A stretch of DNA of 64,000 bases from positions 1 to 64,000 of the IMG/VR virus record IMGVR_UViG_3300021170_000008; one strand, written 5' to 3'. The translations under genes and the position numbers were made by a program. The notes beneath the pieces are model-generated. The model worked only from the letters and a program-made list of their open reading frames with translations, was not told the origin of the DNA and did no database searches. Below are positions 9,229-35,936 of this stretch, piece by piece; positions within the stretch are counted from its first letter, which is position 1; every line of letters starts with the position of its first letter. This stretch comes from a virus.

Positions 9229-9561
9229 TTACGCTCTCCTGAGCATCGGGGCCGGGGTCGTATTAGAGTAAAGCGGCGCACCCCTGAGCATCTCACTTGC
9301 GCGAGTATAACGTATTGAATTCATCATCTTGCGTATCTTCCTACGCTGCCATCGAGTACCTATCCGTGGTCCATCTGACCCTATCGTTAGATCCGCGTAA
9401 GGTCTATTAGCTATCCAGAGATCTAACTTACCGCAGATAGCATAATGGCTGTCGAATTTCCAGGAGGCCGGTCGGAATCTCAAGGACTCCATGATCTCTT
9501 CGGCCAACGACTTAGATGTCACCGGCTTTGGCTTCGGCTTGTCGGGGCCGTCGATGATCAT
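9229..9561 (-). CDS. Hypothetical protein
   Basis: ATGA-coupled to upstream RAIEL gene. Confidence 0.6.
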   Translation of the reverse strand: MIIDGPDKPKPKPVTSKSLAEEIMESLRFRPASWKFDSHYAICGKLDLWIANRPYADLTIGSDGPRIGTRWQRRKIRKMMNSIRYTRASEMLRGAPLYSNTTPAPMLRRA

Positions 9562-9839
9562 AGCTCGATAGCTCTCAGCTTAGGTGGTTTCTCTGACTCA
9601 GGATCGGCTGGGCGTAGGTCACTGACCTTAATAAGGTCAACAGGGATCATAGATTCCACTCGGTAGCCGCACCGAGAGCAAATAAGTGGACCGCCTCCGT
9701 ATATGCGATACATCCGACCATCTGCACACACCGGACACAAAATAGAAGACACCATCAGGCAGCAGGTAACCGACTTTAAGTCTTCCTCGGCCCAGCGGCG
9801 AGTAGCCTTCATGGATAGTGTTACGAGATCTACCGGCAT
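9558..9839 (-). CDS. Zn-ribbon hypothetical protein with C-terminal KPPKLRAIEL
   Basis: CPVC...CSRC; shared C-terminal peptide. Confidence 0.65.
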   Translation of the reverse strand: MPVDLVTLSMKATRRWAEEDLKSVTCCLMVSSILCPVCADGRMYRIYGGGPLICSRCGYRVESMIPVDLIKVSDLRPADPESEKPPKLRAIEL

Positions 9840-9845
9840 ACTCCG

Positions 9846-9874
9846 ATTGTCCCACTTTGCAGAGTTTATGTCAA
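9846..9874 (-). promoter_or_regulatory. Sigma70-type promoter TTGACA-N17-GACAAT (leaderless)
   Basis: ATG 6 nt downstream of -10. Confidence 0.65.
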
Positions 9875-10045
9875 GCGTAATTATGACGGTTCAGGTATTG
9901 GCCGATACTTTTTACATCCGCATACGGAGCAATTTACAATGGTACCGTCGCCCTTAAACCAGTGCTGGTCTTTTCTGTGAGTGCAAACGCAAGGATGGTC
10001 GAGGTCGTCCTGTTGTTTGAGTGGCACGGCTATGCTCATGCGGTA

Positions 10046-10213
10046 TTAGTTTGCTTTGCTCTGGCCCTGATCGACACGGCTTGCGAACCACTCCAGGCAC
10101 TTCGTACATAAAGGTACGTAAGCCCCTTCTTCGTCGCCGACAAAGTACATCTTGACTACCTGGATGCGGGACATCTGGATAGACATACCGGGTCTAAATT
10201 TTACTTCAGGCAT
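10046..10213 (-). CDS. Small hypothetical protein
   Basis: Probable start MPEVKF overlapping upstream gene end. Confidence 0.45.
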   Translation of the reverse strand: MPEVKFRPGMSIQMSRIQVVKMYFVGDEEGAYVPLCTKCLEWFASRVDQGQSKAN

Positions 10214-10565
10214 TTTTAAGCCTTTCCCGTAGGGCGTGGCATTCGTTGTGAGTGATAGCGACCCGTTCGAAGGCGTCAAGGGTCTGCTTCCGGCTGATCT
10301 CAAGGGATCGCTGAAGTCCAGAGATAGTGGCCTTAAGCTCGTCAATCTCAGCCTGCCGCTTGGCTGCGACTTCAGAAACCGCCGGATCGTCGTGGATCTG
10401 GATGTTCCAGGTCACAAGATCATGCAGGGCTTTGCGGTAGTCGCCGTCTTTAACCGTGATCCAGTTGACAACCAGAACATCATCCACCTGATCGAGTTGC
10501 TCTCTTAGCTTCGCCAACTGGCGCTCTGGGCCGGGCTCGACATCATCGTAAGCTGATTGGCTCAT
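10206..10565 (-). CDS. Hypothetical coiled-coil protein (N-terminal AYDDVEPGP)
   Basis: ORF; N-terminus shared with 7953..8237. Confidence 0.6.
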   Translation of the reverse strand: MSQSAYDDVEPGPERQLAKLREQLDQVDDVLVVNWITVKDGDYRKALHDLVTWNIQIHDDPAVSEVAAKRQAEIDELKATISGLQRSLEISRKQTLDAFERVAITHNECHALRERLKNA

Positions 10566-10570
10566 AGAGG

Positions 10571-10852
10571 CTAATCCGTAGTCACCCGATAGTAGAAGGG
10601 CCAGCCTGGAAAAAATGCCCCAGACATAGCCGCCTGAATCCGGTATTCATCAATACTCGACTCACCTACAACTGTAAAGGGATGACGGAATGTCGTTTCG
10701 GAAGTGTAGTCTAAACTAAGACCTGGATACACGTAGCCGATATCTCGTGGTACTAAATCGGTAACGCACAAGTATCCGAAGTTACAAATCACACGAGCTA
10801 GGGCGTCGCGGGTGATGTCGCTCACTAAGCTACCCCCACTACATCGCAACAA
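10571..10852 (-). CDS. Hypothetical protein
   Basis: ORF in operon; true start probably GTG ~10825. Confidence 0.5.
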   Translation of the reverse strand: MLRCSGGSLVSDITRDALARVICNFGYLCVTDLVPRDIGYVYPGLSLDYTSETTFRHPFTVVGESSIDEYRIQAAMSGAFFPGWPFYYRVTTD

Positions 10853-11169
10853 GATAGGCCGCGTTCACGCTTCCCGAATTCAGCTTGGATTACACGGTCT
10901 ATTTTCTTGTTCAGTTTCACGTGAGTGCCGGTCGGACGGTAGCCCATCTGGACAAGATCATTCCCGTTATAAGACGTATAGCAGCGATGAGTCCAGGAGC
11001 ATTTACGTATTGAAAATGTAAAAGTCTCCCGCGTATGACTGCGACCGTATCCGTCATCAACTCTACAAGAATGAACCGCCCGGACAACACGTAATACGCC
11101 AGATCCAGATCGTAGAACATCTCCGACCTTTATATATTTAGTCCAGTGCGTGGGATGAGTCGGACTCAT
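10825..11169 (-). CDS. Hypothetical protein
   Basis: ORF downstream of TTGACA promoter-like site at 11198-11203. Confidence 0.55.
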   Translation of the reverse strand: MSPTHPTHWTKYIKVGDVLRSGSGVLRVVRAVHSCRVDDGYGRSHTRETFTFSIRKCSWTHRCYTSYNGNDLVQMGYRPTGTHVKLNKKIDRVIQAEFGKRERGLSCCDVVGVA

Positions 11170-11199
11170 AACTACATTTTTTCATCTACCTTAATGATG

Positions 11200-11391
11200 T
11201 CAAGCGAAAACGACATACGCGGATTTAGGGACCGCTATTCCGTAATTCCGGCAGTCACAAAACCGGCATGGACCCATCTCGAAAGTCTCTGAAATATGAA
11301 CATCGCCGTGGTCTTCTGCCGGAGCCAATATTGTCGTATGCAGTTCTGCTGAGCAGTTACAATTATAACACGCAGGCATGAAAGCCGTCAT
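11200..11391 (-). CDS. Small Cys-rich hypothetical protein
   Basis: ATGA-coupled; SD GGAGG. Confidence 0.5.
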   Translation of the reverse strand: MTAFMPACYNCNCSAELHTTILAPAEDHGDVHISETFEMGPCRFCDCRNYGIAVPKSAYVVFA

Positions 11392-12002
11392 TTTCCCTCC
11401 AGTGGATGATGCTCGTCAAGCCACGCGGCCCTAGCAACTAGCTCTTTCTGATTGCTAACCGGGGTATAGCCACGGTGCTTCGGAGGCATCTTCATATTAC
11501 GTACCAAATAGGCGTAATCCTCCAGGGCCGATCCCTTGTCTTCGTCGTAGGTTTTTTGGATCTTCAACAACTCCGGCAACCACGGGCGTGACGCCGGACC
11601 AAGCTGGCGTTCAGCCGCATCGTCAAGGGCGATAGTAAGTTCGTTTTCAATGCGTCCAGCCGGTACAGAGATCTTTGGCTTGGCGGACAACAAAAACTCC
11701 GTGACACTACGACCGATCCCAGACTCCGCTTTTGCCGCCTGCTCCAAAACCACAGGCGAATAAATAGTTGTCACGGATTCTACTGCTGACTTATCTGTGG
11801 TAGTTTTCTTATCCTGATAAGTCTGTGGTACGGCGGAATTCTCTCCATCTAATCGTAAGCGCATCGACTCTACGATCCAAGTGTTTAAACTGCAATCACT
11901 TTCCTCGCAAGCAGCATCTACGCGGAGCCCTAAGATCTCAGGGAAGCGCAGTGTGAACCTCCGGATGTCATCAGGTGTCTTTTCTATAGTGTCATCAGCC
12001 AT
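11388..12002 (-). CDS. Arc/ribbon-helix-helix DNA-binding protein
   Basis: RRFTLRFPEIL...SLNTWIVESMR is a typical RHH pattern. Confidence 0.65.
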   Translation of the reverse strand: MADDTIEKTPDDIRRFTLRFPEILGLRVDAACEESDCSLNTWIVESMRLRLDGENSAVPQTYQDKKTTTDKSAVESVTTIYSPVVLEQAAKAESGIGRSVTEFLLSAKPKISVPAGRIENELTIALDDAAERQLGPASRPWLPELLKIQKTYDEDKGSALEDYAYLVRNMKMPPKHRGYTPVSNQKELVARAAWLDEHHPLEGK

Positions 12003-12053
12003 GGTGTCACTTTAGCGAAATCGTGGTGTCATGTCAAGGATTTAGTGGTGTCA
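12002..12053 (-). promoter_or_regulatory. Promoter TTGACA-N17-TAAAGT overlapped by three TGACACCA direct repeats (22-bp period)
   Basis: TGGTGTCA (+ strand) at 12002, 12024, 12046; -35 at 12032-37, -10 at 12009-14. Confidence 0.7.
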
Positions 12054-12374
12054 CTTTTTGAATTCTACGCCTGAGTAATTTTAGAAAAGATTTTGGAATA
12101 GCCGGGGGAAGCCAGCCCCGCGCCTACGGCGCGGCCAAGTACGGCATGCCACCCCTTAGGCGCTTCACACATGCCTCATAAACGCGCTACAAGCGATCCA
12201 CGGGCAATCGGTGATACCCACGCATAGGGGCGTAATTCGATTGCTCTGGCGTCGTTCTAGCGATTACCCTTGTCCCACGTGTGCGAAATCTCCCTAGGAT
12301 TAGTCCTAGATAAGGCCACCTAAGCCCGTGATAAGCCTATCTTTCGCCCTATGTTTCACCCGCAAATGGGGGTA

Positions 12375-12402
12375 TTGACATACCGTCAAGCGCATATAAG
12401 CT
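12375..12402 (+). promoter_or_regulatory. Rightward sigma70-type promoter TTGACA-N16-TAAGCT
   Basis: Upstream of first rightward gene with SD AGGAG. Confidence 0.55.
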
Positions 12403-12452
12403 AGTGATACCGCGTAGCTTAGCCAAAAGGACGCGGGCAGGAGATAACACAT

Positions 12453-12752
12453 ATGACTGATAACAAGAGTGTTGATAAGAGAGAGACAGCGGGCGGAGGG
12501 TTACCTAGTCACTTCACCGCTGGATTCTGGCTGATGACTCACACAACTATCTGGCAGGGGATACTTAAGGCTTTCCCTGAACCCATCGAAGTGTTGTATC
12601 TCTCTGAGTCGGACGAGCATAACGCTAGATTAGCTCTGGCTCAAGGATCATCAGGCAAATGGTTTCTCCATGATGAGACTGATTCGGGCCTTACTTATCG
12701 GGCCTGGGATACGCTCACCGCTGCTAAGTCTTACCTGCGGAGGTTACGCTAA
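12453..12752 (+). CDS. Hypothetical early protein
   Basis: SD AGGAG; ORF. Confidence 0.55.
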   Translation: MTDNKSVDKRETAGGGLPSHFTAGFWLMTHTTIWQGILKAFPEPIEVLYLSESDEHNARLALAQGSSGKWFLHDETDSGLTYRAWDTLTAAKSYLRRLR

Positions 12753-13025
12753 ATGTACACTCTTCATCCGTTCGCTACTTCATCGGGTGCGGCATCTTTC
12801 GCAGAGCAATTTGCTTCAGGCCCGGTATGCGTCCTGTTACAGAGCTTGGCTAAGCCCGTAGGTTCCAAGCGATATACGCTCTGGCTTAACGTCGCTACCC
12901 TTGACGCCGATAGTGATGGGGTTCATTTCGATGTCAAGCCCGTCAAGCAGATTGCTCCGGCTGTATCGTCCCATAAGTCTCATGCTGAGTTACGGTCCAT
13001 CTTGAAAGGGGTTTCTCATGCGTAG
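12753..13025 (+). CDS. Hypothetical early protein
   Basis: SD GGAGG; abuts upstream stop. Confidence 0.55.
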   Translation: MYTLHPFATSSGAASFAEQFASGPVCVLLQSLAKPVGSKRYTLWLNVATLDADSDGVHFDVKPVKQIAPAVSSHKSHAELRSILKGVSHA

Positions 13026-13199
13026 ACTAGTCGCCACTGCGTTCATTCTCGCCGTTTGGATCGGCGTTATCTGTCGCGCATTGGGGGTGAATCTCATCCC
13101 CATCCAACCGTAGGTGTTCCATGATGAAACGGGGCCTTTGAAGCCCCGTATACCGGACATGGTCACCCGGTACTGACGATTCAGACCAGATAGGAACAT

Positions 13200-13523
13200 A
13201 TGACAAACGTATCTGATAACTTCGCCGTCCCAAGTGCCGTAACGGTACTCCGTCCAACAGTCTTAACTGCCGATTCACTTGCTAACCTGCTAGCCGGAGC
13301 GGCAGAAGCCCATCACATCTACGAAGCTAAGATCGGCATGGCCGATTCTTCGTGGGAATCGTGGTACGCAGCATGGATCATGGATCGCCTTCCAGTTCCC
13401 GTTGAAAGCTCCACACGTACTAGTCTCCGTTCACAGGAACCTGAAACCGGGTTTGACGACGAGCAAGGGACATACGGTCTGTCGGCTTATCCCAACATTC
13501 CCTCGGAAGATTCGGCGTACTAA
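13200..13523 (+). CDS. Hypothetical protein (AH..YE...D..W..WYA motif)
   Basis: SD TAGGA; ORF. Confidence 0.6.
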   Translation: MTNVSDNFAVPSAVTVLRPTVLTADSLANLLAGAAEAHHIYEAKIGMADSSWESWYAAWIMDRLPVPVESSTRTSLRSQEPETGFDDEQGTYGLSAYPNIPSEDSAY

Positions 13524-13534
13524 GGGGCTTTATC

Positions 13535-13897
13535 ATGAGCTTTCAACAACACGCCAAAGGGTCATTTGCAGTTGACGTTCAAGGCCAGTTCCATTGCGGA
13601 CCTAATCACGATTCGCCTAAGCGCTTTGACTTCGAAGTGACTATCCACTACCCTGCTAACGCGCTAGACTCCCAAGGGTTCCTACTCGACAATACGGCTT
13701 TCAAGGGTTACTTTGAGTCGCTTGGCCGAACGGAGCTTAGCTGTGAGCTTTTAGCTAAGACGGCTTGCGAGTACTTCGATTCCCTAGCAGGCGACCGGGC
13801 GCAATCCATCGATGTGGCGATATGGGGTATTCCCGATCATGCGCGGATATCTTACCGCATAGAGAAACCACCTAAAGCTATTCCCGCAAGCGCTTAG
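13535..13897 (+). CDS. Divergent QueD/6-pyruvoyl-tetrahydropterin synthase-like (T-fold) protein
   Basis: HC...H...FEVTI...LDSQGFLLD...SCELLA pattern. Confidence 0.5.
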   Translation: MSFQQHAKGSFAVDVQGQFHCGPNHDSPKRFDFEVTIHYPANALDSQGFLLDNTAFKGYFESLGRTELSCELLAKTACEYFDSLAGDRAQSIDVAIWGIPDHARISYRIEKPPKAIPASA

Positions 13898-13919
13898 ACG
13901 CTCTACAGCCGTTCCACTT

Positions 13920-13959
13920 AACCCCTGGGTATCGCAAGGTACCCAGGGGTTTTTCTTTT
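13920..13959 (+). terminator. Rho-independent terminator
   Basis: ACCCCTGGGTATC-GCAA-GGTACCCAGGGGT hairpin followed by TTTTCTTTT. Confidence 0.85.
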
Positions 13960-14015
13960 GCCTTGACGGGCCTTGAATCCTCATACCATCCAAGTAACTG
14001 AAAGGGGAAAACAGA

Positions 14016-14222
14016 ATGGACAATCAACACCGGCTGCTAGTGTGGGACGGCTCCCGCATAGAGGAAGTGGCGCAAGTGGCGGAACGCGCGGTTATAGACT
14101 TCCTTGAGCAATTCAACGGGCCTGATACCGATACCACCTGGAACCTAGCAGCCGAAGTACATTCGCTGGTAGAAGAACGGCTGCATACCTGGGATGAATC
14201 CCCGGTCAATCTAAGTAACTGA
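14016..14222 (+). CDS. Hypothetical early protein
   Basis: SD after motif copy 2. Confidence 0.55.
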   Translation: MDNQHRLLVWDGSRIEEVAQVAERAVIDFLEQFNGPDTDTTWNLAAEVHSLVEERLHTWDESPVNLSN

Positions 14223-14260
14223 AGACGCCGATTCGGCGAGATAGGAAAACCGATATCTGA

Positions 14261-14575
14261 TTGAGCAAATATACCTTCACAATAGGGCAAGGTTACGACT
14301 CGAACGGTCACAAGCTACAGAACGTCTCCCGCAAGCGTAGGAACGCTCTGCAATCGATTGCTAAGACGTTCGGCGGGTATACCGCGACTCCCGCTAGTGG
14401 TGGATGGATAGACCGCGGAAAGCTCATAACGGAGCCTAGCCTAGCTATCACGGTGTTAACCGATAAACCGGCCAAGACGATCAAGGCCACGGCGCAAGCA
14501 CTTCGGGAAACCTTCGGACAGACGAGCGTACTCGTCACGCGGGAACCGGCTAAGGCTCAGTTCGTCACAGCTTGA
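14261..14575 (+). CDS. Hypothetical protein (FGGYT...GGW motif)
   Basis: TTG start with SD TAGGA. Confidence 0.6.
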   Translation: MSKYTFTIGQGYDSNGHKLQNVSRKRRNALQSIAKTFGGYTATPASGGWIDRGKLITEPSLAITVLTDKPAKTIKATAQALRETFGQTSVLVTREPAKAQFVTA

Positions 14576-14631
14576 CCCTGAATCCTCACAACATCTAAGA
14601 AATAGAAAGGCAAGGACATACGAATACGAAT

Positions 14632-15138
14632 ATGGACAAACGAACGAACGAATCAGAACAGCAAACAATGGAGCGCATCTGGCGCGAAGTCCAGACCAAA
14701 ACCGGAACGCAGACTCACCTGGGAGTCGGCCCGCTACAGGGTTTCGATCTGTTCTTCATGGGCCTAATCAACGCAGACGGGAGTATTAATCCCAATGCGG
14801 CGATTAACCCACGCGAAGGAATCCGCTACACTCCTGGGTTTTCTAAGCTCTTTACAGACAGTCAGATTGCCGGGACACTGGCGCACGAATTGGGGCATTT
14901 TGCCGGAGGATTCAAACACGGCCATGCATCCGAAGTCGCCGCCGATGTGTGGGCAGCAAAACACGGATACGGTCCTCAGTTGCTCGATACGCTGCATTGG
15001 TTTGCAGCCAAAGACCCTGAGGGCGCAAAGGCGGAAGATTCCGACCATCCAGTTGTAGGCAAACGATTTGCCGCAATCAACAAAGTGATTGAATCCCAGC
15101 AACATCAAACGAATAGGAGCAAAGCCAAAGCAGCATGA
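14632..15138 (+). CDS. M48-like zinc metallopeptidase
   Basis: LAHELGH, E..AD, HP...R motifs. Confidence 0.75.
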   Translation: MDKRTNESEQQTMERIWREVQTKTGTQTHLGVGPLQGFDLFFMGLINADGSINPNAAINPREGIRYTPGFSKLFTDSQIAGTLAHELGHFAGGFKHGHASEVAADVWAAKHGYGPQLLDTLHWFAAKDPEGAKAEDSDHPVVGKRFAAINKVIESQQHQTNRSKAKAA

Positions 15139-15287
15139 AACAGAAACCCGCCGTACTCGCAAAGAACCTGCCGTACCTGAAAGCCTTCAAGCTCTATCGT
15201 GAGCTTTCATCTAACCGGCCTGATTTGACGTTTTCCTTCAAACCGCAAGGCAATGCGGGGCTGTACCAAGTGGAGCTAGAACGATGA
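15135..15287 (+). CDS. Small hypothetical protein (50 aa, MKQKPAVLAK...)
   Basis: Hand-translated; ATGA-coupled both ends. Confidence 0.5.
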   Translation: MKQKPAVLAKNLPYLKAFKLYRELSSNRPDLTFSFKPQGNAGLYQVELER

Positions 15288-15466
15288 CCAAAACGGCCTT
15301 GACGGAACAGGAGATCCGGCTTTGGATCTTGAACGACGAACGGCTTTACAACTGGTATCGCGCCGAACGTGGGGATGCTGACGTTTACACGTTCATCCGT
15401 GCGAATCGCCTAGCGCTTGAACGCGCTATCGAACGCACACGCGATAGAGTGACGCCTAAACCTTGA
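15284..15466 (+). CDS. Hypothetical protein (WILNDERLY)
   Basis: Coupled ORF; common phage small-protein pattern. Confidence 0.6.
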   Translation: MTKTALTEQEIRLWILNDERLYNWYRAERGDADVYTFIRANRLALERAIERTRDRVTPKP

Positions 15467-15510
15467 ATCCCTGATACATCTAACAGATAGGAGCGAACGA
15501 ATTAACGAAT

Positions 15511-15738
15511 ATGAGCAAAACCATACGCCACGAAAAATACGACGAGCTAAGCGGCATTATCGCTTGGGAATCCGGAGAGCTTGACGACGAGGGAACCCGC
15601 GAGCTTTTTCAACACCTTGTCGATAACGGCCACGCATGGACCTTACAAGGCACCTACGGGCGAACCGCTTCAGCACTGCTTAAAGCAGGCGAGATCGAAG
15701 CTACCACCGAAACCGCGCGGCGCGTCAAGAATCGCTGA
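15511..15738 (+). CDS. Conserved phage hypothetical protein (ESGEL...FQHLVDNG.AW.LQG.YGR)
   Basis: Recognisable phage small-protein motif; SD AGGAG. Confidence 0.7.
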   Translation: MSKTIRHEKYDELSGIIAWESGELDDEGTRELFQHLVDNGHAWTLQGTYGRTASALLKAGEIEATTETARRVKNR

Positions 15739-15805
15739 ATCCCGGTAGCATCCAAGTAAGTGTAAGAGATAGAAAAAAGACGCCTTCGGGCGAGATAGGA
15801 GATAG

Positions 15806-16015
15806 ATGCGGAAGCTCAAAACCCACGCGAAACATGCGCTCTATCAGGCGCATAAACACTCGGACAAAACTCGGACGGTCTTAGAGGCCGTAGCGAACAT
15901 CATTATCGCACTCGAAACCCGACTGCTGTTTCTGTCGGCGCTGCTCATCGTTTGGTCTATCGTCGATGTGCTCAATATCCTCGAAATCAAAAACAGGGAG
16001 GTCAAAAGCCGATGA
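15806..16015 (+). CDS. Small membrane protein
   Basis: SD AGGAG; hydrophobic segment. Confidence 0.55.
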   Translation: MRKLKTHAKHALYQAHKHSDKTRTVLEAVANIIIALETRLLFLSALLIVWSIVDVLNILEIKNREVKSR

Positions 16016-16163
16016 ATCTACAGTTTAGGAACTTAGTCAACATGGTCCCGCAACACGCGGGACCTGCGGCGGAGCGTAAGCCAGAACACGCTACAAGCGA
16101 CCTGGGATACGACTTCGGGGCCATCTTCCACGATGAAGAGGACAGAGAGGAAAACGGCGAATT

Positions 16164-21916: not shown

Positions 21917-21918
21917 AC

Positions 21919-24020: not shown

Positions 24021-24284
24021 ATGAAATGGTATGCGTTTAAGTTTCAAATCCGAAAGTGGCAAGCGAAGGACGGGCGTTACACGAATCTGGAATCCGTAAC
24101 GGTCGTCCACGGCATTGGCCGTGACTGGCAAGAGGCGATAGAACGAATGAAGGTATTCTTTCAGCCGGTTAGGATCGAGATCGGAGATCTAGAGTGGCGC
24201 GTAGAGCTTTCTGGTATGTACAACTGCGAGCACTTTAACCTGCCGGAGCCTGAGGCGGAGGCCACGCGAAAGATAGAAATATGA
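24021..24284 (+). CDS. Hypothetical protein, C-terminal TRKIEI
   Basis: SD GGAGG. Confidence 0.6.
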   Translation: MKWYAFKFQIRKWQAKDGRYTNLESVTVVHGIGRDWQEAIERMKVFFQPVRIEIGDLEWRVELSGMYNCEHFNLPEPEAEATRKIEI

Positions 24285-24553
24285 CGGTACACCTATACCA
24301 CGTAACCTATGTCCGCTGGAATAGGGAGAATACACTTCTAGGCCAGAAGATGGAGGTCTATACGCCTGGGACCAGCGGATGGGACGCGGCGGCGCGAGTT
24401 CGTGAGTGGGTTTCTGATAGGATCGAGATATTCCGTTGCCATAAACAAGACCTAAAGGTCGTCGGCTTGGATTTCGCCAAGCTGGGCTTCGTTGATCCAG
24501 AAACCGGAAAGCGCCGGGCCAAAAAGTCCGAGCGGGCCATCCAGATAGACTGA
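24281..24553 (+). CDS. Hypothetical protein, C-terminal ERAIQID
   Basis: ATGA-coupled. Confidence 0.6.
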   Translation: MTVHLYHVTYVRWNRENTLLGQKMEVYTPGTSGWDAAARVREWVSDRIEIFRCHKQDLKVVGLDFAKLGFVDPETGKRRAKKSERAIQID

Positions 24554-26134: not shown

Positions 26135-26135
26135 A

Positions 26136-26504: not shown

Positions 26505-26792
26505 ATGAGAGACATCAAACCAGAAAAGCCTGTGCTCCGGCCTTCAGACCGGTTCGTGAAGTTCAGCTACGACGATCTGACCGTACTGATAGATCTCATG
26601 GAATGCGTCGATTTGGAGCCAGAAGAGATCATCGTGAAGGAAAAGGCAGTCCAGATCAGATCTTTGATGGTACAAAAGAGGGCAGCCGAAGACGCCCAAG
26701 ATAGAGCGATACGTAAAGAAAGATCAAGAAGATACAAGGATACCCATGGAAACGCAAACCCTTCCAAAAACGGTGAGCCAGCAGGTAGCTGA
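26505..26792 (+). CDS. Hypothetical protein
   Basis: ATG just after TTGACA-N17-GAGAAT (26472-26500). Confidence 0.5.
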   Translation: MRDIKPEKPVLRPSDRFVKFSYDDLTVLIDLMECVDLEPEEIIVKEKAVQIRSLMVQKRAAEDAQDRAIRKERSRRYKDTHGNANPSKNGEPAGS

Positions 26793-27717
26793 ACTTACCG
26801 GCAAGACGCCACAGAAAGTACGGATATTCGACAAAGCCTGCTGCGTGCGCGTGAAGTTCAACAAAGTTGGGACTTCCCGCAAGATTCCGTCCGGGGCCGT
26901 CGAAACAGACAGTGACCGTGATCTCATCAGGGTCAGCAAGACTCTGTACGATTCCTCTGAGATGAAGGCTGTCAAGAAATTCGACGGCGAGATCCGGGCC
27001 TGGATCTACTCACGCTGTCTCAGTTCCTACATCGACGACGGCTTGTATTTCATCAGCTTACAGTCTCTTAAAGACTTCGACGAGCAGATGAAAAAGTTCG
27101 AAGTCCAGCGAGCGGCCTTAGTCGAATCTCTGGTCGCAGCTTCCGAGCGCATCATCGATCAAGACAAGAACCGTCTGCGGTCAAACTTCAGAGAGTCCGA
27201 CTACAAGAGCCCTGACGCTTTGAGGAAAGCCTTTAGCCTCTACTGGCGCTACGTGTCGTTCGTGGCTCCAAAGTCGCTTGAGGCCGTCTCTGAAGACCTG
27301 TACAAGAAAGCTCAGGATCAGATCAACGCCGATATCGCCGATGCGACCGCCATGGTCCGCTACGCCCTACGGGAGGAAATGAAAAGTCTGGTAGATTGGA
27401 CCGTGAATCGCCTCACACCAGATGAAGGCGGCAAAAAGAAGATTTTTCGTTCGAAAACCAAAGAGGGCGAAGAGATCGGCTTCACAGCCAAAATGAAAGA
27501 CTTCCTGTCCTGCTTCCAGGGCCGCAATATCACCGAAGACGCCGAGCTACAGCAACTTGTACAGAAAGCTCAGGCTTTGATGGCCGGTGTCGATCCCGAA
27601 AAGCTCAGGACTTCCGACATGGACCGGGATTACGTCCGCGCAGGCTTTGAAGAACTAAAGGCCGAACTGGACACGATGGTCAAAGACGCGCCCTTGCGGG
27701 CAATCGAGGTAGACTAA
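26746..27717 (+). CDS. DUF3150-like protein, C-terminal PLRAIEVD
   Basis: G.YFI...L...F..SDY...L...F pattern (recall). Confidence 0.6.
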   Translation: METQTLPKTVSQQVAELTGKTPQKVRIFDKACCVRVKFNKVGTSRKIPSGAVETDSDRDLIRVSKTLYDSSEMKAVKKFDGEIRAWIYSRCLSSYIDDGLYFISLQSLKDFDEQMKKFEVQRAALVESLVAASERIIDQDKNRLRSNFRESDYKSPDALRKAFSLYWRYVSFVAPKSLEAVSEDLYKKAQDQINADIADATAMVRYALREEMKSLVDWTVNRLTPDEGGKKKIFRSKTKEGEEIGFTAKMKDFLSCFQGRNITEDAELQQLVQKAQALMAGVDPEKLRTSDMDRDYVRAGFEELKAELDTMVKDAPLRAIEVD

Positions 27718-28743: not shown

Positions 28744-28755
28744 AAAGAGTCTAAC

Positions 28756-29112: not shown

Positions 29113-29479
29113 TCGAAGCAACGGGCGCTACATCCTGAAGGGAAAGACGCCGGTACCTGAGCCGGACCTGCTCAAATGGGCTCAGTGGTTCGAAGAAGCC
29201 AATAACCGGGTAGTCAAGCAAGACACGATCAACGGATACTTTGTATCTACGGTTTTCCTTGGCCTGGATCACGACTTTGGGTTCGGCGGGGCACCGATAC
29301 TATTCGAAAGCATGGTCTTCGGCGGTCGAACTGAAATCATGGATCGGTATTGCACCTGGGAACAGGCAGAGCGCGGACATAAGCAGATCGTGCGACGTGT
29401 GTCTCGATGGAAAATCAAGGGATCACGCTGCGAGCCAGAGAAAGAGAAACCACCAAAACTGAGGGCAATTGAGTTATGA
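29099..29479 (+). CDS. Conserved phage protein (VSTVFLGLDH...FE.MVFGG...RY.T) with C-terminal KPPKLRAIEL
   Basis: Recognisable motif. Confidence 0.7.
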   Translation: MPRNDRSNGRYILKGKTPVPEPDLLKWAQWFEEANNRVVKQDTINGYFVSTVFLGLDHDFGFGGAPILFESMVFGGRTEIMDRYCTWEQAERGHKQIVRRVSRWKIKGSRCEPEKEKPPKLRAIEL

Positions 29480-30009
29480 GCACACCGATCCTAACGCGAG
29501 CCAAGGGAAAGACAGGACGTGTATGGATAGCCAAGGAAGCCCTGCAAACCCTCTACTATGAACGCAACTTATCCACCGTAGAGATCGCGTCTCTTCTTGG
29601 TGTTTCCAAGAAAACCGTCCGCTTGCGCATGGAAGAATACGAGATGAAGGCTCGCTCTCTACGCGAAGCGTTCTCCGTGTCTACCAAGCATTACGGGAAA
29701 AATCCACGCATTGGCCAAGACTCCACGGCGTGGAAGGGCGGAAGAAAATATCACGCCTGCGGATATATTCAGGTTTTATCTAAAGGACATCCAGAAGCCA
29801 ACGCCGATGGCTATGTTTTTGAGCATCGATTAGTCGCCGAGGGGATGATCGGACGCAGGCTTCTACCTGACGAAGAAGTACACCATATCAACATGGAGCG
29901 AGACGACAACAGGCCGGAGAATATCCTCGTTATGAAAATTTCGGAGCACCGTTCTATGCACATCAAAGCACGCTGGGACGCTGGGCTCATGCCTGGAGCA
30001 AAATTATGA
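29476..30009 (+). CDS. HTH + HNH homing endonuclease
   Basis: WKGG, YV.EHRLV, VHHIN..RDDNRPENI. Confidence 0.85.
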   Translation: MSTPILTRAKGKTGRVWIAKEALQTLYYERNLSTVEIASLLGVSKKTVRLRMEEYEMKARSLREAFSVSTKHYGKNPRIGQDSTAWKGGRKYHACGYIQVLSKGHPEANADGYVFEHRLVAEGMIGRRLLPDEEVHHINMERDDNRPENILVMKISEHRSMHIKARWDAGLMPGAKL

Positions 30010-31454
30010 CAACTGAAGTAACTACCGGGGTTCATGCATTCACGCCAGAACAGGTGGCGTTAATTAAAAGCCAGATCACCCCTGAAGGCACTACCGACGA
30101 TGAACTGGCTATGTTTTTACTGTACTGCACACGTACCGGATTAGATCCATGGGCGCGTCAGATTTACCTGAGTGAGCGCCGGACTAAAAAGGGAGATCGC
30201 TGGATCACGACGCGCAAGCCGGAAACTACTATTGACGGCTTTAGGTTAATCGCTGATCGTACCACTAAATACGCCGGTCAGCTTGGACCCCAGTGGTGTG
30301 GCGAGGATGGTGCCTGGAAAGACGTTTGGACGCCACGGGAGCCGCCGATAGCTGCAAGGGTAGGCGTCCTGCGGCATGACTTCAAGGAGCCATTGTACGC
30401 CGTGGCTCTCTATGACGAGTACGTTCAGAAGAACAGCGAAGGCAGGCCAAATTCGATGTGGCTCAAGATGCCCGCTAATCAGTTGGCCAAATGCAGTGAA
30501 TCGCTCGCTCTGCGTCGTGCATTCCCCCGCGAATTAAGTGGTCTCTATACTCGCGAAGAAATGGCGCAAGATACACCGGACTCGCCTGCGCCAAGTACTG
30601 AGCAATACTTCGTGGAGGAAATCCCGGCTGATTCAGAACCGGTAGTCCAGGTCGTCGATCACATTAACGGGAATCCGACCGACAACACGCTATCCAATTT
30701 GAAGATCGTGCCTCAGTCAGCGAAACCGGAGCCGACCCTCAACGAGCAAGTAGACGCGCACCGGGCTCTGGCTGAGATCGAGGTTAAGCAGATTCGCGAG
30801 GATATCATCAAAACCACCGGCGGCGTGACCAAGCAGATGACCGACGAGTTCTTCTTGGGATGGTTTGGGGCTAAAGACAAGCGCAGTCTGCCTAGGATCG
30901 TTTCGTCTTATCTTGCTCCGCTACAGGCGCTCCAGAAGACTCTTGTAACCGTAGCTGGATCGCATCAGCAACTTTTAGAGAGCCCCCAAGCACTTGGGGC
31001 TAGCGTCAAAAAAGAGTACGACCAAGTTACCGCAGGCGGGACACGAAACCACGCAGCACAAACAACCGAGGCCGTATTTGAACGGACTGAAGTGCTCGAC
31101 GACAAAGACATCTTAGAAGATCCGCTGCTGACGAAGTTTAACTGGAAGAACATCAATACCGCGATCTTCGCCAAGGCCCTGATGGTTAAATGGGGCCACG
31201 ACATGGAGACGTTTGAAAAGCACCTGCGGCTGCTCAAGATTCTGGATCTGCCGGAGCCGGAGATCGTGGCGCTGTGCAAGATGTTATGGCACTCGACAGA
31301 CGCCTACACGATATGGAAGCGCGGCCTGGACAAGAAGATACCGCTGACGGTTTCGCTCATAGCGATAGAAAACGAACTTGGCGAGACTCTCGGAAACGGC
31401 TCCGACTCAGCCAAGGTCGCCAAAGCGATATCCGTAGTAGCTGGAGCGATGTAG
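30006..31454 (+). CDS. bet: Phage recombination protein Bet (single-strand annealing)
   Basis: GLDP..RQIY...TIDGFR.IA...W.KMP..QLAKC.E..ALRRAFP.ELSGLY..EEM. Confidence 0.9.
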   Translation: MTTEVTTGVHAFTPEQVALIKSQITPEGTTDDELAMFLLYCTRTGLDPWARQIYLSERRTKKGDRWITTRKPETTIDGFRLIADRTTKYAGQLGPQWCGEDGAWKDVWTPREPPIAARVGVLRHDFKEPLYAVALYDEYVQKNSEGRPNSMWLKMPANQLAKCSESLALRRAFPRELSGLYTREEMAQDTPDSPAPSTEQYFVEEIPADSEPVVQVVDHINGNPTDNTLSNLKIVPQSAKPEPTLNEQVDAHRALAEIEVKQIREDIIKTTGGVTKQMTDEFFLGWFGAKDKRSLPRIVSSYLAPLQALQKTLVTVAGSHQQLLESPQALGASVKKEYDQVTAGGTRNHAAQTTEAVFERTEVLDDKDILEDPLLTKFNWKNINTAIFAKALMVKWGHDMETFEKHLRLLKILDLPEPEIVALCKMLWHSTDAYTIWKRGLDKKIPLTVSLIAIENELGETLGNGSDSAKVAKAISVVAGAM

Positions 31455-31479
31455 ATAGAAAGAAAGGGATAACTGATAA

Positions 31480-31941
31480 ATGAGGAATAGTGAAGTTATG
31501 ACTGGATTAGACATACTCGAAGAGCTTGAAATGGAACTGGCGCAGGTCAGCGATGATCAAGTAGCGTTTCGCGCTACCAAGTTCGACAAGGTCGAAAAGG
31601 GCGAAACCGTCGTCGGTACGGTCCAAAACGATACGCTCAAAAAGCTGTGGTGCTTGATGGCGATTCTGGGCGCTCGCGGGGTCAAGGGCAAGGCCGACAT
31701 CGAGACGGCTACTTCGGAATCCGAAGAGAAAGACAAGCTGTCTGCGGCTGCTCGTGATATGTGCTTGGCGAAGATCGCAAAGTTCCTGTTCTGGGCGCAG
31801 CTTCGGCGCGAGTTCGATATTTTCGCCGCAGACAATATCGGCGTTCGCTCCAACTGGCAGGTCATTACCTCCAAAGAAAAAGATCAGCACCCGCTGGTCG
31901 GTCTGCTCGGCGGGATCTTGGGCCAGGGAGGGGACGATTGA
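31480..31941 (+). CDS. Hypothetical protein
   Basis: ORF. Confidence 0.6.
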   Translation: MRNSEVMTGLDILEELEMELAQVSDDQVAFRATKFDKVEKGETVVGTVQNDTLKKLWCLMAILGARGVKGKADIETATSESEEKDKLSAAARDMCLAKIAKFLFWAQLRREFDIFAADNIGVRSNWQVITSKEKDQHPLVGLLGGILGQGGDD

Positions 31942-32068
31942 ATCCACTAACCCCGGAGCAGTGTGATTACCTCTACGAAGTGCTACTCGGCTTTCTCTTG
32001 CCGCCAGAAACAGCAAGATCGATTGTTCAGGCGATGGCGAATAAGTTCGGTATGCACGAAGTCGAGAT

Positions 32069-32638
32069 ATGAACCTTACGTTTGATCCAGTGTCGCACAC
32101 GTACCGGCTGGACGGGGTAGAGATACCATCGGTTACGACCGTGCTGGACTGGGCGGGGTTTTCTCCGCCCTATCCTGCGACTGGAGACTATAAGGCCAGA
32201 GGCACAGCAGTCCATACTGCTTGCTTGTACTACGACCAAGGTAAAAGGTTTAGAGTTGATCCGCGTATTGATGGATACTTGGCTAGTTACGAGATCTTCA
32301 GAAAAGACTTCCCGATGAAGTGGGACCTAATGGAGATCCAGGCATTTCATCCGGTTCTGGTATACGCAGGTACGTTGGATCGTGGCTATCTAGGCAGGCA
32401 CAGGGGAAATATGTTGATCGTGGACATCAAAACCGGAGAACCACCAAAGAAACGATTGGGGCTCCAAACAGCGGCTTACGCGATGCTCCACGCCAATCCT
32501 CCGCGATCAGCCGAACGTATGGGCGTTCAGTTGGACAAAGACGGCGGGAGATATAAGCTGCATGAATGTTCGGACCCGGCTGATTTCGATGTCTGGGTCG
32601 GACTGGTACACAGATGGCATTGGGAAAGGAAAAGATGA
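32069..32638 (+). CDS. PD-(D/E)XK (Cas4-like) exonuclease
   Basis: PSVTTVL, RGTAVH, YAGTLD, IVDIKTG, LQTAAY. Confidence 0.85.
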   Translation: MNLTFDPVSHTYRLDGVEIPSVTTVLDWAGFSPPYPATGDYKARGTAVHTACLYYDQGKRFRVDPRIDGYLASYEIFRKDFPMKWDLMEIQAFHPVLVYAGTLDRGYLGRHRGNMLIVDIKTGEPPKKRLGLQTAAYAMLHANPPRSAERMGVQLDKDGGRYKLHECSDPADFDVWVGLVHRWHWERKR

Positions 32639-32994
32639 ACACTGTAAAAGTAAACCGCGAAGAGCTTCTGACGACCGTCAAGGCTAACTTCGACAAGCAC
32701 AAAGAGATCGTTACCGAGGCTTTCGCTAAGTATCGAGAGCTTGCGGTAGCTGAACTGGATGCGATGATCGCAGAAGCCAAAGCAGGCAAGCGCATCCGCA
32801 GACAGGTGTCTCTTGTCGAGCCGATTGACCAGAGCGCTGAATATCTGACTGCGATCAGAAAGCTCGAAATGTCGGTAGATCCCGTTATCGAGATCGACGA
32901 CGAAGACTTCCGGCACCTAGTCATGGACGAGTGGCGCTGGAAAGGGCAGTTCATGGCGTCCAACAGAACTTACACAACAAAGGCGGATCAGTAA
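32635..32994 (+). CDS. Conserved phage hypothetical protein
   Basis: Coupled start MNTVKV; Y..AI..LEMSVD...V.DEW.W. Confidence 0.65.
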   Translation: MNTVKVNREELLTTVKANFDKHKEIVTEAFAKYRELAVAELDAMIAEAKAGKRIRRQVSLVEPIDQSAEYLTAIRKLEMSVDPVIEIDDEDFRHLVMDEWRWKGQFMASNRTYTTKADQ

Positions 32995-32995
32995 A

Positions 32996-33451
32996 ATGAA
33001 GAAAATCAAAAAGCAGCAGAGCACGGCGCTCGGGATCGTCAGGAGATACTTCCCGAACGTCAGGAAAGTAGTTGACGCCAAAACAGCGATGAATGTCACG
33101 GTCAGCAAAAGAGACGCTGATAGCGCTAGCGCGAAGATGCCGGATGAGTGTGCCGTCGCCAAAGCTATGCAGCGACATCACACTGGCGCAATTATCTCCA
33201 AATCGACTTCGTATGTCATTGACGGGGATGTAGCGACTCGCTTCAAAACTCCCGAGAGCGTCACCAGGGAGATAGTCTCGTTCGACAGAAACAAAGTATT
33301 CGAGCCTGGAGAGTATACACTACGGGCACCGTCGAGCCACGAGCGCCTGGGGCCGAGAGACCGGCCACAATACAGTAAGAGTAGGACAACTGACACACCT
33401 CATCGGGCCTATCACGCAACAAAAGGCGTTAGATCCCTCAAGAGAAAGTGA
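32996..33451 (+). CDS. Hypothetical basic protein
   Basis: ORF. Confidence 0.6.
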   Translation: MKKIKKQQSTALGIVRRYFPNVRKVVDAKTAMNVTVSKRDADSASAKMPDECAVAKAMQRHHTGAIISKSTSYVIDGDVATRFKTPESVTREIVSFDRNKVFEPGEYTLRAPSSHERLGPRDRPQYSKSRTTDTPHRAYHATKGVRSLKRK

Positions 33452-33454
33452 TCA

Positions 33455-33697
33455 GTGACACAATCGCAACTACAATTCGTCTACGAGCTTTCGCTCTGGT
33501 TCAAGGAACATGCCATGTCAGGAAAGTCGATTACGCCTGACGCTATCTCATGGCGAGACGCATCCAATACTTTGAAGCAGATTTTGGAAGAGACGCCGAT
33601 GTCTACGCCTGTGCGCCGTAAAAAGATTAACGCGCAGGCGGCGGCTGAAGCAGCCAGGGACGACAAACCCCCGAAGTTGAGGGCGATAGAGCTATGA
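33455..33697 (+). CDS. Hypothetical protein with C-terminal KPPKLRAIEL
   Basis: ORF; shared peptide. Confidence 0.6.
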   Translation: MTQSQLQFVYELSLWFKEHAMSGKSITPDAISWRDASNTLKQILEETPMSTPVRRKKINAQAAAEAARDDKPPKLRAIEL

Positions 33698-34065
33698 AGA
33701 AAGGCAGATACATGATACAGTGCGCGTGCGGCAAGATACACGAAGTCCAAGCTGAATGTTTTCAGCCTAAGAAAGTTCTAGCAACGGTTCAGTACAAAGA
33801 CTGGGGCTTTGAAGTTTCGGAGGATCAGTCCTGGTTCCAGGTTCGCATTAACGACGAGCACAAGGGCCGTAAGTGGAAGCTCTCTCCGCACATGACCAAG
33901 TCCGAGATCGTCCAGACGGCGTTTCTGGCCGTTCTGACTGCCGAAGAGCATGAGACTCGCGAGCAGTTTAAGTATCGCGGCTATGCTATCTTCGGGCCAC
34001 ACTTCAACGTGGATCGCTTGGCGGATCTCATTCACCAGGGCGGAGCGCACCAGATCAGGGACTAA
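33694..34065 (+). CDS. Conserved phage protein (GRKW.LSPHMTKSEIVQTAF.A...EEHE.RE)
   Basis: Recognisable motif; coupled. Confidence 0.7.
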   Translation: MKKGRYMIQCACGKIHEVQAECFQPKKVLATVQYKDWGFEVSEDQSWFQVRINDEHKGRKWKLSPHMTKSEIVQTAFLAVLTAEEHETREQFKYRGYAIFGPHFNVDRLADLIHQGGAHQIRD

Positions 34066-34070
34066 CCTAT

Positions 34071-34271
34071 ATGGACTTCATCGCCGTAACATCGTCAAAC
34101 ATCCAGGCATACGCAGTGGACGGCAGTACTTTGTATTTGCAATTCAAAGGGGGCGAAACTTACGCCTACCACCTACTGCCAGACACAGTGACCCAGGGAT
34201 TCGCGGATGCAAGTAGCAAGGGCGAGTTCTTCCATGGCCAGATCCGGCCATTCTACAAGGGGATAAAGTGA
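34071..34271 (+). CDS. KTSC domain protein
   Basis: V.SSNI......L.LQFK.G..Y.Y......ASSKG.FF...IR. Confidence 0.85.
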   Translation: MDFIAVTSSNIQAYAVDGSTLYLQFKGGETYAYHLLPDTVTQGFADASSKGEFFHGQIRPFYKGIK

Positions 34272-34589
34272 ATGGACTCCAATTTCAAGTACATGATCGT
34301 ATGCCTTGCGGGGCCTGCAATCGATAAAATGGATTCCTTTTGGAGCAACAAACTTCAGTATCGTGACTTTAACGGAGCGTGGACGCTACGCAAGCGCGAC
34401 GCCGCGACGTTTACAGCCACGGAAGCTGAGGAAGAGATGAATAAAGTATCAACGCAGACAAACTCTGATTACTTCGTCTATCTCGTCAGGCTCCCGAAGG
34501 GAGTCCCCTATCTGAGAATGTTAGGGGAGGGCGACGAGCATAGACCAGAGAAGCAGGCTGCCGAGAAGCTGCGAGCAATTGAATTATGA
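34272..34589 (+). CDS. Hypothetical protein with C-terminal EKLRAIEL
   Basis: ORF; shared peptide. Confidence 0.6.
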   Translation: MDSNFKYMIVCLAGPAIDKMDSFWSNKLQYRDFNGAWTLRKRDAATFTATEAEEEMNKVSTQTNSDYFVYLVRLPKGVPYLRMLGEGDEHRPEKQAAEKLRAIEL

Positions 34590-34951
34590 AGAAGCTAACC
34601 AAGAAACAGGCCAAAGAGGCTATTATCCAGGCTGTTGATGCCGGGCGTGTAAAGTTCTCCCACCCTGACGCGACCAAGATGCTCAGCGGGCCCGCGGTCG
34701 ATCCCAAAACAACCGAGTTCGACTACTTGGAATCTGAAATGATCGCGCCATTCAATCCGACCGAAGAAGACCGTAAGGCGTGGCAACATGACGGCGGGAT
34801 TCATTTTCGGTGGGGCCTGAAGGGTTTTGGGTTCGGCGAGGCCAGTATCGTGTCCCGTAATGGGAAGTGGGTCGCAGATACCGAGCACCTAGGTCGGGAC
34901 TTTTTGATCAAAATCCTGACTCGCTGGGCCAAGCAGATGAAAATCCGATGA
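34586..34951 (+). CDS. Hypothetical protein
   Basis: ATGA-coupled. Confidence 0.6.
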   Translation: MKKLTKKQAKEAIIQAVDAGRVKFSHPDATKMLSGPAVDPKTTEFDYLESEMIAPFNPTEEDRKAWQHDGGIHFRWGLKGFGFGEASIVSRNGKWVADTEHLGRDFLIKILTRWAKQMKIR

Positions 34952-35652
34952 GCGACACGACAATCTCTACTCCTGACACGTCAGAGCTACAGCCGCGCAT
35001 CTTAGCGCTTGAAGAGCTTCGTAACCTGAAGATCACCGACGCCGCTACGCTCCAGGCAGCCAAAGATGGCATAGACGCCTGCGCCGAGCTTCAGAAGCAT
35101 GAGACGCTCACTAAAATCTCCACAGCCTGCGCGGAAGCCAACTCACTCCATAAAACGCTCACAGCACTTAGAGATAGTTTTCTGGACCCAATCGAAAGTA
35201 TTTCTCGATACTTACGCGGGACTGTGGCGAGGTATTTAGAAGATCAAGAGCGCCTAGCCCTAGAGCGGCATCTTCAGGAACAGGCCGAGTTGGCTGATAA
35301 ACAAGCTGAGGAAGAGCGTGACCCGTGGGAACAGGCTCCAGAGCCTTCGTCGGTCAAAGTGTCTCTGGCTCCGTCTAAACCACTAGTAACCGGGTTGTCT
35401 CTTCGAAAGCTCCCCAAGAAAGCCGAGATTGTCGGCTATGCCGAGAAGGGTGTATTCTCGGAGGGCTTCAAGTTACTCGTATTGGCGGCGGCGGAGAAGC
35501 TCAAGCAGGGCGACGATTCTATGCTCGTGTTCCTAGAACCAAACGGAGTAGCTTTAACCGCTAGAGCCCGCGAGTGGGGCAAGAAGATATTCGAGGAACG
35601 TATCCCCGGCGTGGTCGTGATCGACGACAAGAAAACGGTGTCCAGGCGATGA
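34948..35652 (+). CDS. Coiled-coil phage protein (IPGV C-terminal motif)
   Basis: Coupled start MSDTT at 34948. Confidence 0.65.
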   Translation: MSDTTISTPDTSELQPRILALEELRNLKITDAATLQAAKDGIDACAELQKHETLTKISTACAEANSLHKTLTALRDSFLDPIESISRYLRGTVARYLEDQERLALERHLQEQAELADKQAEEERDPWEQAPEPSSVKVSLAPSKPLVTGLSLRKLPKKAEIVGYAEKGVFSEGFKLLVLAAAEKLKQGDDSMLVFLEPNGVALTARAREWGKKIFEERIPGVVVIDDKKTVSRR

Positions 35653-35936
35653 GATGCGAAGTCCAATGGGCGCTAGAAAAAGGGGCCAACTGGGACGGGG
35701 GACAGTGTATGAATCCGGCGACCAGAAGAGCTATCGCCACAGACTCGCATTGTATTTTCCGTGTATGTGAAGCTCACGCCAGAGATGTGGCCACGCTAAC
35801 ATGGGGCGGGCGTCTCGGTGAAGTCACCAAAATGCTCCCGACCGATCCCCTTTGGGTTATATGGCCACCACTTGGATGGCATAACGACGAGGAAGAAGTT
35901 CAGGAACGGAAGCGCTTGCGGGCAATCGAGCTATGA
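35649..35936 (+). CDS. Hypothetical protein with C-terminal KRLRAIEL
   Basis: Coupled start MRCEVQ. Confidence 0.6.
   Translation: MRCEVQWALEKGANWDGGQCMNPATRRAIATDSHCIFRVCEAHARDVATLTWGGRLGEVTKMLPTDPLWVIWPPLGWHNDEEEVQERKRLRAIEL

Follow-up and report, generated by a model that had tools for sequence, protein, structure and literature searches.

The 64,000-nucleotide stretch of DNA analysed here (the window) comprises positions 1–64,000 of the IMG/VR record IMGVR_UViG_3300021170_000008, a single virus genome of 106,134 bp. Thirteen proteins of this genome, with bodies that are unrelated to each other, end in a common short peptide of the form Arg-x-Ile-x-hydrophobic, and two of the 13, a tandem-domain AAA ATPase and a DUF3150-family protein, form a gene pair that carries matched versions of the same tail in other viral and bacterial loci. 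Our analysis indicates that the tail is probably a docking peptide that is read inside the AAA-DUF3150 module and that the tagged proteins are clients or regulators. The tail shows the features of the docking-motif class: it lies on tails that are predicted to be disordered, changes only synonymously, is carried by 13 unrelated protein bodies and, in one protein family that is otherwise without it, is a later addition.

Counts were made on a simple gene call for the whole genome, which gave 177 open reading frames (ORFs). R-A-I-E-L-stop is found exactly at the C-terminus of seven ORFs (0.003–0.006 expected) and the wider pattern R-x-I-[EQDS]-[LIV] in the final eight residues of 13 of the 177 proteins (0.07–0.11 expected). 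Across the proteome the wider pattern has 16 occurrences, 13 of them C-terminal and three elsewhere. Five ORFs of the window terminate in L-R-A-I-E-L-stop, three of these in the longer form K-P-P-K-L-R-A-I-E-L, while two further exact R-A-I-E-L-stop ORFs and one R-S-I-E-I-stop ORF are located outside the window on the minus strand, near 100–101 kb. The AAA ATPase spells the tail R-A-I-S-L and the DUF3150 protein R-A-I-E-V; R-A-I-E-L is used seven times, and R-A-I-Q-I, R-K-I-E-I, R-S-I-E-I and R-M-I-D-L are found once each. The bodies of the 13 carriers are mutually dissimilar (BLAST among them, all E > 0.5), and the tag is preceded by a Pro/Glu/Lys-rich linker, with Glu, Pro and Lys at about twice their proteome level in the 15 residues ahead of the motif. 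An initial annotation, made from the sequence alone, had noticed an LRAIEL-type C-terminus on at least nine unrelated proteins and had suggested counting such C-termini against chance. All of the C-termini that it named are present at their stops, the total rises to 13 genome-wide, and the count is enriched, at 13/177 against about 0.1 expected.

The copies agree as peptides and differ as DNA. Among the seven five-codon R-A-I-E-L blocks all 84 of 84 nucleotide differences are synonymous, with a mean of four per pair, and the three ten-codon K-P-P-K-L-R-A-I-E-L copies have 6–7 differing sites, again all synonymous. In the R-A-I-E-L blocks synonymous sites are nearly saturated with zero amino-acid change. 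Because all 84 differences are synonymous, the codon comparison shows that purifying selection acts on the peptide of the tag; the initial annotation, whose quoted codon strings are correct, had likewise placed the conservation at the peptide level and not in a DNA repeat. A DNA repeat as the source of the shared ending was ruled out by the synonymous codon differences, and a Shine-Dalgarno-driven ending was ruled out since the RAIEL endings have no conserved Shine-Dalgarno sequence. A clamp-binding or PIP motif was also rejected, as its spacing does not fit. The genome does contain a shared C-terminus of nucleotide-level cause, in contrast to RAIEL. Three genes, 7313–7768(-), 7953–8237(-) and 11388–12002(-), end in Glu-Gly-Lys-stop, encoded by GAGGG(G/A)AA(G/A)TGA, with a Shine-Dalgarno-like run followed by a start that overlaps the stop (ATG in two, GTG in 7313–7768). 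These endings, from GGAGGGAAAATGA, combine a Shine-Dalgarno site with a start overlap; fixed DNA of this kind is absent from the RAIEL endings.

One tag carrier, a protein of 126 amino acids (aa), has enough relatives to show how the tag was acquired. Of its 695 homologues, the members of about 100 aa stop right after the conserved domain, before the extension, and the extension of about 25 residues is found only in the window protein and in P0279, a metagenomic protein with 72% identity. In P0279 the linker has diverged and L-R-A-I-E-L is unchanged. Since homologues lack the tag and the 72%-identical relative keeps L-R-A-I-E-L despite a diverged linker, the alignments show the tag to be an add-on to this family.

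The AAA ATPase matches PF00004 (E 1e-15) and contains a degenerate N-terminal AAA-like domain, which has no P-loop motif, and a C-terminal AAA domain, which harbors the catalytic motifs and is predicted to be active. The AlphaFold2 (AF2) model has a predicted local distance difference test score (pLDDT) of 94, compared with 57–77 for tail residues 491–509. Foldseek aligned the model with the D1-D2 regions of Rix7, p97/Cdc48 and NVL over both domains (E ~1e-14, template modelling score ~0.5, ~590–620 columns). The protein has neither an N-domain nor a MIT domain; a degenerate D1-like domain is present instead. In 93 homologues, the G-P-P-G-A-A-K-S motif and the D-E of I-D-E-I-E-K are invariant (G318, K324, D275 and E276), and in a second region of homology T379 and N381 are invariant and R391, R392 and R393 are conserved. 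The T379–R393 stretch aligns to the A-T-N-R...L-R-R region of a VCP-like ATPase, which contains the sensor-1 Asn and the arginine fingers. Arg503, in the tail, is conserved in at least 90% of the 93 homologues and is near-invariant amid variable tail residues. The family is large, with at least 1,802 matches (clusters at 90% identity). Within residues 265–400 the Walker B segment (I-V-F-I-D-E-I-E-K and the next helix) is N-terminal to the Walker A strand, a departure from the canonical colinear order, and between the pore-loop helix and sensor 1 there is no acidic Walker B. Residues 265–319 align to residues 376–429 of the VAT chain (Walker B/alpha3) and residues 311–366 to residues 320–375, both in local alignments that are weak. 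The ATPase is best regarded as an unusual member of its class, possibly with a circular-permutation-like rearrangement conserved across the family.

The partner of the ATPase is a 323-aa protein that does not itself match PF11348 at E <= 0.01; the domain is matched by 54 of its 122 aligned homologues (best 5e-10), consistent with the initial description of the protein as DUF3150-like. Its Atlas neighbours, mostly from Uroviricota, contain PF11348 in 11–18% of members, and the family comprises 2825 representative clusters (50% identity). The predicted fold is a bundle of long helices with a small sheet (AF2 pLDDT 93), and mean pLDDT values are 70 and 60 in the last two ten-residue blocks (301–323). 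Fold searches returned generic helical bundles only and no informative structural neighbour, longer homologues revealed no informative extra domains, and a search with a 12-sequence DUF3150 alignment gave no match in genome contigs or viral contigs. The best-conserved short feature of the family is its C-terminus, ...Pro-x-Arg-x-Ile-x-Phe-acidic. Arg318 is conserved in at least 90%, and R-x-hydrophobic-x-hydrophobic is present in the last 25 aa of 128 of 157 homologues. Two homologues end in an SSB-like tail (acidic residues, then I-P-F or I-L-F) that replaces Arg-x-Ile-x-Phe, which suggests tail swapping between hub systems.

Profile-guided retrieval gave two sets of loci. One has 80 loci from bacteria or metagenome-assembled genomes (MAGs), chiefly of Acidobacteriota, with Nitrospirota, Armatimonadota and others represented as well; the other has 81 viral loci, five of which are IMG/VR loci and 76 of which are new. 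The DUF3150 gene lies downstream of the AAA gene on the same strand in 68 of the 80 bacterial/MAG loci and in 77 of the 81 viral loci, and no third gene is widely common to the former set. AAA and DUF3150 are also the only genes that the window phage has in common with five otherwise mostly unrelated IMG/VR contigs and with Tunturiibacter phage Tunturi_3; nearly all of these relatives have Arg-x-(Ile/Phe)-x-hydrophobic followed by acidic residues on both tails. In general, tails of the module have the form (Pro)-x-Arg-x-hydrophobic-x-hydrophobic, after which acidic residues usually come, and some AAA homologues continue for up to about 18 residues beyond the motif. More distant homologues of the AAA, from Rhizobium and Pseudomonas phages, lack an adjoining DUF3150 gene, and their tails are unclear.

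To compare the two tails of a locus, each was anchored at the conserved Arg, and shuffled pairings served as the control. Of the 30 distinct pairs in the bacterial/MAG set, 15 have the same residue at +2 (6.5 when shuffled) and 17 at +3 (6.0 when shuffled). The viral set gave 29 of 67 at +2, compared with 17.7 shuffled and with 1e-4 of shuffles reaching 29, and 13 of 67 at +3, compared with 7.1 shuffled (0.015 of shuffles). Among the dialects that the two proteins of a locus have in common are R-x-F-R, R-x-I-T, R-x-Y-V, R-K-V-I-L, R-R-V-R and R-x-V-T. Some loci have further carriers, as smaller and independent cases: locus L129 has two additional neighbours with the local R-R-V-R-hydrophobic tail, and L175, L179, L183 and L201 each have one third protein with a dialect-matched tail; in L183 the flank is basic instead of acidic in all three carriers. 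The pair is also present on the chromosome of Nitrospira moscoviensis (L114; NZ_CP011801.1, 1446433–1467911), with the R-x-Y-V/A dialect on both tails; this cultured bacterium could serve as an experimental system. The tail comparisons show that the motif drifts from one lineage to the next, with the two tails of each locus staying similar. The initial annotation had named the AAA system as one possible target of the tag; that link stands, with AAA and DUF3150 carrying the ancestral form of the tail, matched across about 140 loci. Its DUF1257/DUF2997 labels for neighbouring genes are not supported.

We propose that the disordered C-terminal tails of the Cdc48/Rix7-like, tandem-domain AAA and of the helical DUF3150 protein are the ancestral home of the motif, and that a single reader, placed inside the module, co-evolves with both. 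The matched drift of the two tails argues for one co-evolving reader, and it favours a reader encoded by the module over a conserved host hub. In the lineage of the window phage, the module's version of the tail (R-A-I-E/S-L/V) would have been grafted via flexible Pro/Glu/Lys-rich linkers onto at least 11 small, mostly early-region proteins; judged by spelling, the 11 extra tails are in the phage's own dialect, R-A-I-E/S-hydrophobic. Through the graft these proteins would reach the same binding site and serve the ATPase as clients, adaptors or regulators. Our first choice for the protein that would bind the tag is the AAA ring rather than DUF3150, because many motif-bearing partners are the known pattern for a Cdc48-like machine and because the DUF3150 tails, SSB-like in two homologues, resemble recruiting tails. 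A bound client might be unfolded or extracted, removed at a set time, or co-localised. The initial annotation had suggested a docking or sorting tag, for instance for the AAA system, a protease, a scaffold or virion loading; its peptide-level nature, its position after a linker and its link to the module through matched tails hold, and the reader is a putative one.

Several observations weigh against this proposal. The counts of tail covariation ignore common descent and correspond to perhaps only 8–10 independent dialect switches. Extra dialect-matched tails are not enriched in the viral set (6, compared with 7.5 in mismatched-dialect controls) and are weakly enriched in the bacterial/MAG set (4, compared with 1.1). 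The AF2 monomer models of AAA and DUF3150 showed no docking of the tail in cis. Moreover, the AAA protein itself carries the motif, and a simple model in which AAA reads the tag needs autoinhibition or contacts within the ring. Finally, on the whole contigs of G001–G005, the closest full relatives covered, the motif is present on the AAA-DUF3150 pair only, and the large expansion is known from the window lineage alone.

We consider it rather unlikely that DUF3150 is the reader. It would then form an oligomer or scaffold by head-to-tail docking of its tails, AAA would be recruited by its own tail, and the tagged proteins would be recruited to the resulting hub or factory. Such an arrangement explains the tail of AAA without extra assumptions, the small sheet on the predicted long-helix bundle could accept a strand, and the SSB-like tail swap in two homologues is as expected of a hub protein with a partner-recruiting tail. 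The lack of an informative match in the fold searches speaks against it. A reader provided by the host is improbable, whether this were a chaperone, a replication hub or a protease (HslV, ClpXP or Lon, for example). Here the tails would be degrons or hijacking peptides by which the tagged early proteins are cleared or targeted. Consistent with this idea, the module is found in phages of many phyla, and similar C-terminal tails dock on host machines elsewhere: the HslU tail docks on HslV, the SspB XB peptide (L-R-V-V-K) docks on the ClpX N-domain, and the SSB tail also docks on host machines. However, the motif drifts between lineages yet the tails stay matched, which a co-inherited reader fits better, and no gene set apart from the module is constant.

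Self-association of the tails, through a like-with-like strand zipper or a condensate that would co-localise carriers without a dedicated pocket, seems very unlikely. The +2/+3 covariation is by identity, not complementarity, and alternating Arg/Ile/Leu could fit one face of a strand; but five to six residues are short for a stable homotypic interaction, and the tails have no repeat or low-complexity character. We give hardly any credence to a role in translation, as a nascent peptide or messenger RNA context for termination-reinitiation at ATGA overlaps, or to a neutral recombination remnant at gene junctions: six of the seven exact copies do overlap the next ATG (CTA/TTA-TGA), compared with 33 of 175 junctions genome-wide, but -4 overlaps make up about half of the junctions in the 28–37 kb block (a visual count on the gene calls), the near-saturated synonymous sites leave the amino acids unchanged, the AAA and DUF3150 families (thousands of proteins) keep the motif at 0–18 residues from the stop and are separated from the next gene by gaps of the ordinary kind, and the true nucleotide-level ending of this genome, Glu-Gly-Lys-stop, looks quite different. 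The initial annotation had placed every exact copy in an ATGA overlap, which is correct for the five window copies and fails for the genome copy at 100636, which ends TTG TAA without overlap; its alternative of a nascent peptide that promotes reinitiation is poorly supported, given the varying distance of the motif to the stop, the copy without ATGA and the local frequency of overlaps. One further junction was considered in favour of a remnant. The 120-aa protein at 13535–13897 shares 15 nucleotides with the linker of the 9558 copy, its Leu-Arg codons are missing, and its ending may be a decayed copy of the tag; the 15-nucleotide match alone is not significant genome-wide.

Across the contigs covered, the large tag expansion is lineage-specific, because the five relatives tag only the pair and pattern scans found no other exact-tag carrier. 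A DNA-pattern scan of IMG/VR viral contigs for K-L-R-A-I-E-L plus ATGA gave no matches, a scan for the GAG variant gave seven and a scan of JGI metagenome contigs gave 20, all of these being chance, out-of-frame matches. Megablast with 10 kb of the genome found no match among cultured phages. Among cultured phages, the closest relative of the module is found in Tunturiibacter phage Tunturi_3 (AAA 37%, DUF3150 30%), which does not have the tag expansion. Its gp96 (L001 23690–24649) is a DUF3150 homologue (30% identity, E 2e-34) labelled 'HNH endonuclease' in GenBank, and the homology suggests that this label is wrong.

Table 1 Carriers of the C-terminal tail in the virus genome, with one possible decayed copy (genome positions; those up to 64,000 are also window positions)
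Protein	Position	Strand	C-terminus and remarks
AAA ATPase, 509 aa	22486–24015	+	Disordered tail ends R-A-I-S-L-E-D; candidate reader and native motif carrier
87-aa protein directly 3' of AAA	24021–24284	+	R-K-I-E-I-stop; ATA TGA overlap
90-aa protein	24281–24553	+	R-A-I-Q-I-D-stop
DUF3150-family protein, 323 aa, conserved AAA partner	26746–27717	+	P-L-R-A-I-E-V-D
126-aa protein, large phage family	29099–29479	+	K-P-P-K-L-R-A-I-E-L-stop; ~25-aa linker added
60–80-aa protein (start 33455 GTG or 33515 ATG)	33455–33697	+	K-P-P-K-L-R-A-I-E-L-stop
105-aa protein	34272–34589	+	E-K-L-R-A-I-E-L-stop
95–120-aa Cys-rich protein (start 35574 GTG or 35649, the latter overlapping the preceding stop)	35574–35936	+	K-R-L-R-A-I-E-L-stop
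71-aa zinc-ribbon-like protein	35933–36148	+	R-M-I-D-L-P-stop, fits R-x-I-x-L; phrog_33336, function unknown
93-aa zinc-ribbon-like protein	9558–9839	-	K-P-P-K-L-R-A-I-E-L-stop; weak Zn_Ribbon_TF match
ORF outside the window	100851–101288	-	R-A-I-E-L-stop, exact
ORF outside the window	100636–100854	-	R-A-I-E-L-stop, exact; ends TTG TAA, no overlap
ORF outside the window	100071–100631	-	R-S-I-E-I-stop
120-aa protein	13535–13897	+	E-K-P-P-K-A-I-P-A-S-A-stop; possible decayed tag copy

The two small proteins encoded just 3' of the AAA gene (87 and 90 aa) have no Pfam, PHROG or NCBIfam match at E <= 0.01, and their initial assignment to DUF1257 and DUF2997 is not upheld. Elsewhere in the genome, three ORFs of 46–65 aa located among structural genes, 53729–53926(-), 73884–74024(-) and 81226–81366(-), have a common, very basic C-terminus (Lys/Arg-Lys-Lys-Gly-Arg-Lys...), and may represent either a further shared tail or a small family of DNA-binding proteins. 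The 482-aa product of 30006–31454 is a RecT-family annealing protein (residues 12–190) with an HNH_3 motif, either as a fusion or as an interruption, and with a long C-terminal extension; a separate HNH/helix-turn-helix gene (29476–30009) lies just upstream. Outside the window, an intein splicing domain (PF14890, E 5e-20) that carries an HNH-like insert is encoded within a 625-aa ORF (102064–103941(-)).

For two large phage families that are uncharacterised, the matched, drifting tails, and the way in which other proteins can join by gaining a tail, offer a first handle on function. The best natural test bed is the window phage, in which 13 proteins carry one dialect. If the docking reading is right, the tail would amount to a protein-recruitment tag that is compact, orthogonal and tunable, and it would explain how a phage co-ordinates unrelated small early proteins. 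A broader picture is possible, and we offer it tentatively: AAA-DUF3150 might be a protein-handling machine, widespread among phages and so far undescribed, with an 'address' peptide that co-evolves with it, such that any protein with the local tail is a client. The window phage would then tag its own early proteins, at least 11 of them, for purposes such as extraction, unfolding or timed clearance, in what would amount to a virus-encoded, re-programmable degron or recruitment system. Literature searches returned one irrelevant match for DUF3150, nothing relevant on phage Cdc48-like ATPases or on Ycf46/DUF1257, and author names only for the literal tag string. We found no description of the motif, the module or the matched drift of tails in the literature; what is new is the link of a shared tail to a defined, widespread gene pair.

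The tail can be compared with several known systems of short peptide docking. Arg and aliphatic residues at the extreme C-terminus also serve to dock on or activate a protease machine in HslU, by its tail on HslV, and in SspB, by its XB peptide on ClpX; in the wider phage family acidic residues come after the motif and the motif drifts, which does not fit those host sites. The cofactor motifs of p97/Cdc48 (VIM, VBM and SHP box, and the PUB/PUL domains on the p97 tail) resemble the phage case in that an AAA machine of the D1-D2 or classical-clade type has many unrelated partners with short linear motifs, and in the Vps4 MIT-MIM/ESCRT-III system, similarly, a C-terminal motif of a helical partner is recognised by the ATPase. 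Unlike p97 and Vps4, the phage AAA has no N-domain or MIT domain and carries the same motif as its partners.

In SSB-type acidic tails (D-D-D-I-P-F of E. coli SSB; T7 gp2.5 and the gp4 helicase on T7 DNA polymerase), an ATPase and a second protein have look-alike disordered tails. The tails of gp2.5 and gp4, a hexameric ATPase, are interchangeable and are read at the same site. The order is reversed in the phage module, where Arg and hydrophobic residues come first and acidic residues after; moreover, the phage tail has spread to many unrelated small proteins, and DUF3150 is not known to bind DNA. The HbYX/GQYL motifs of proteins that bind the 20S proteasome (PAN, Rpt subunits, archaeal Cdc48, Mpa, Bpa/PafE, PA200 and Pba1/2) likewise consist of a few C-terminal residues on a disordered tail that are common to classical-clade AAA proteins and unrelated non-ATPases; all of these proteins dock on one receptor, as is proposed for the phage tails. 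The phage motif differs in being Arg-x-Ile-x-Leu/Phe with an acidic flank, not necessarily at the free carboxylate, in drifting between lineages and in belonging to a module without a proteasome-like partner.

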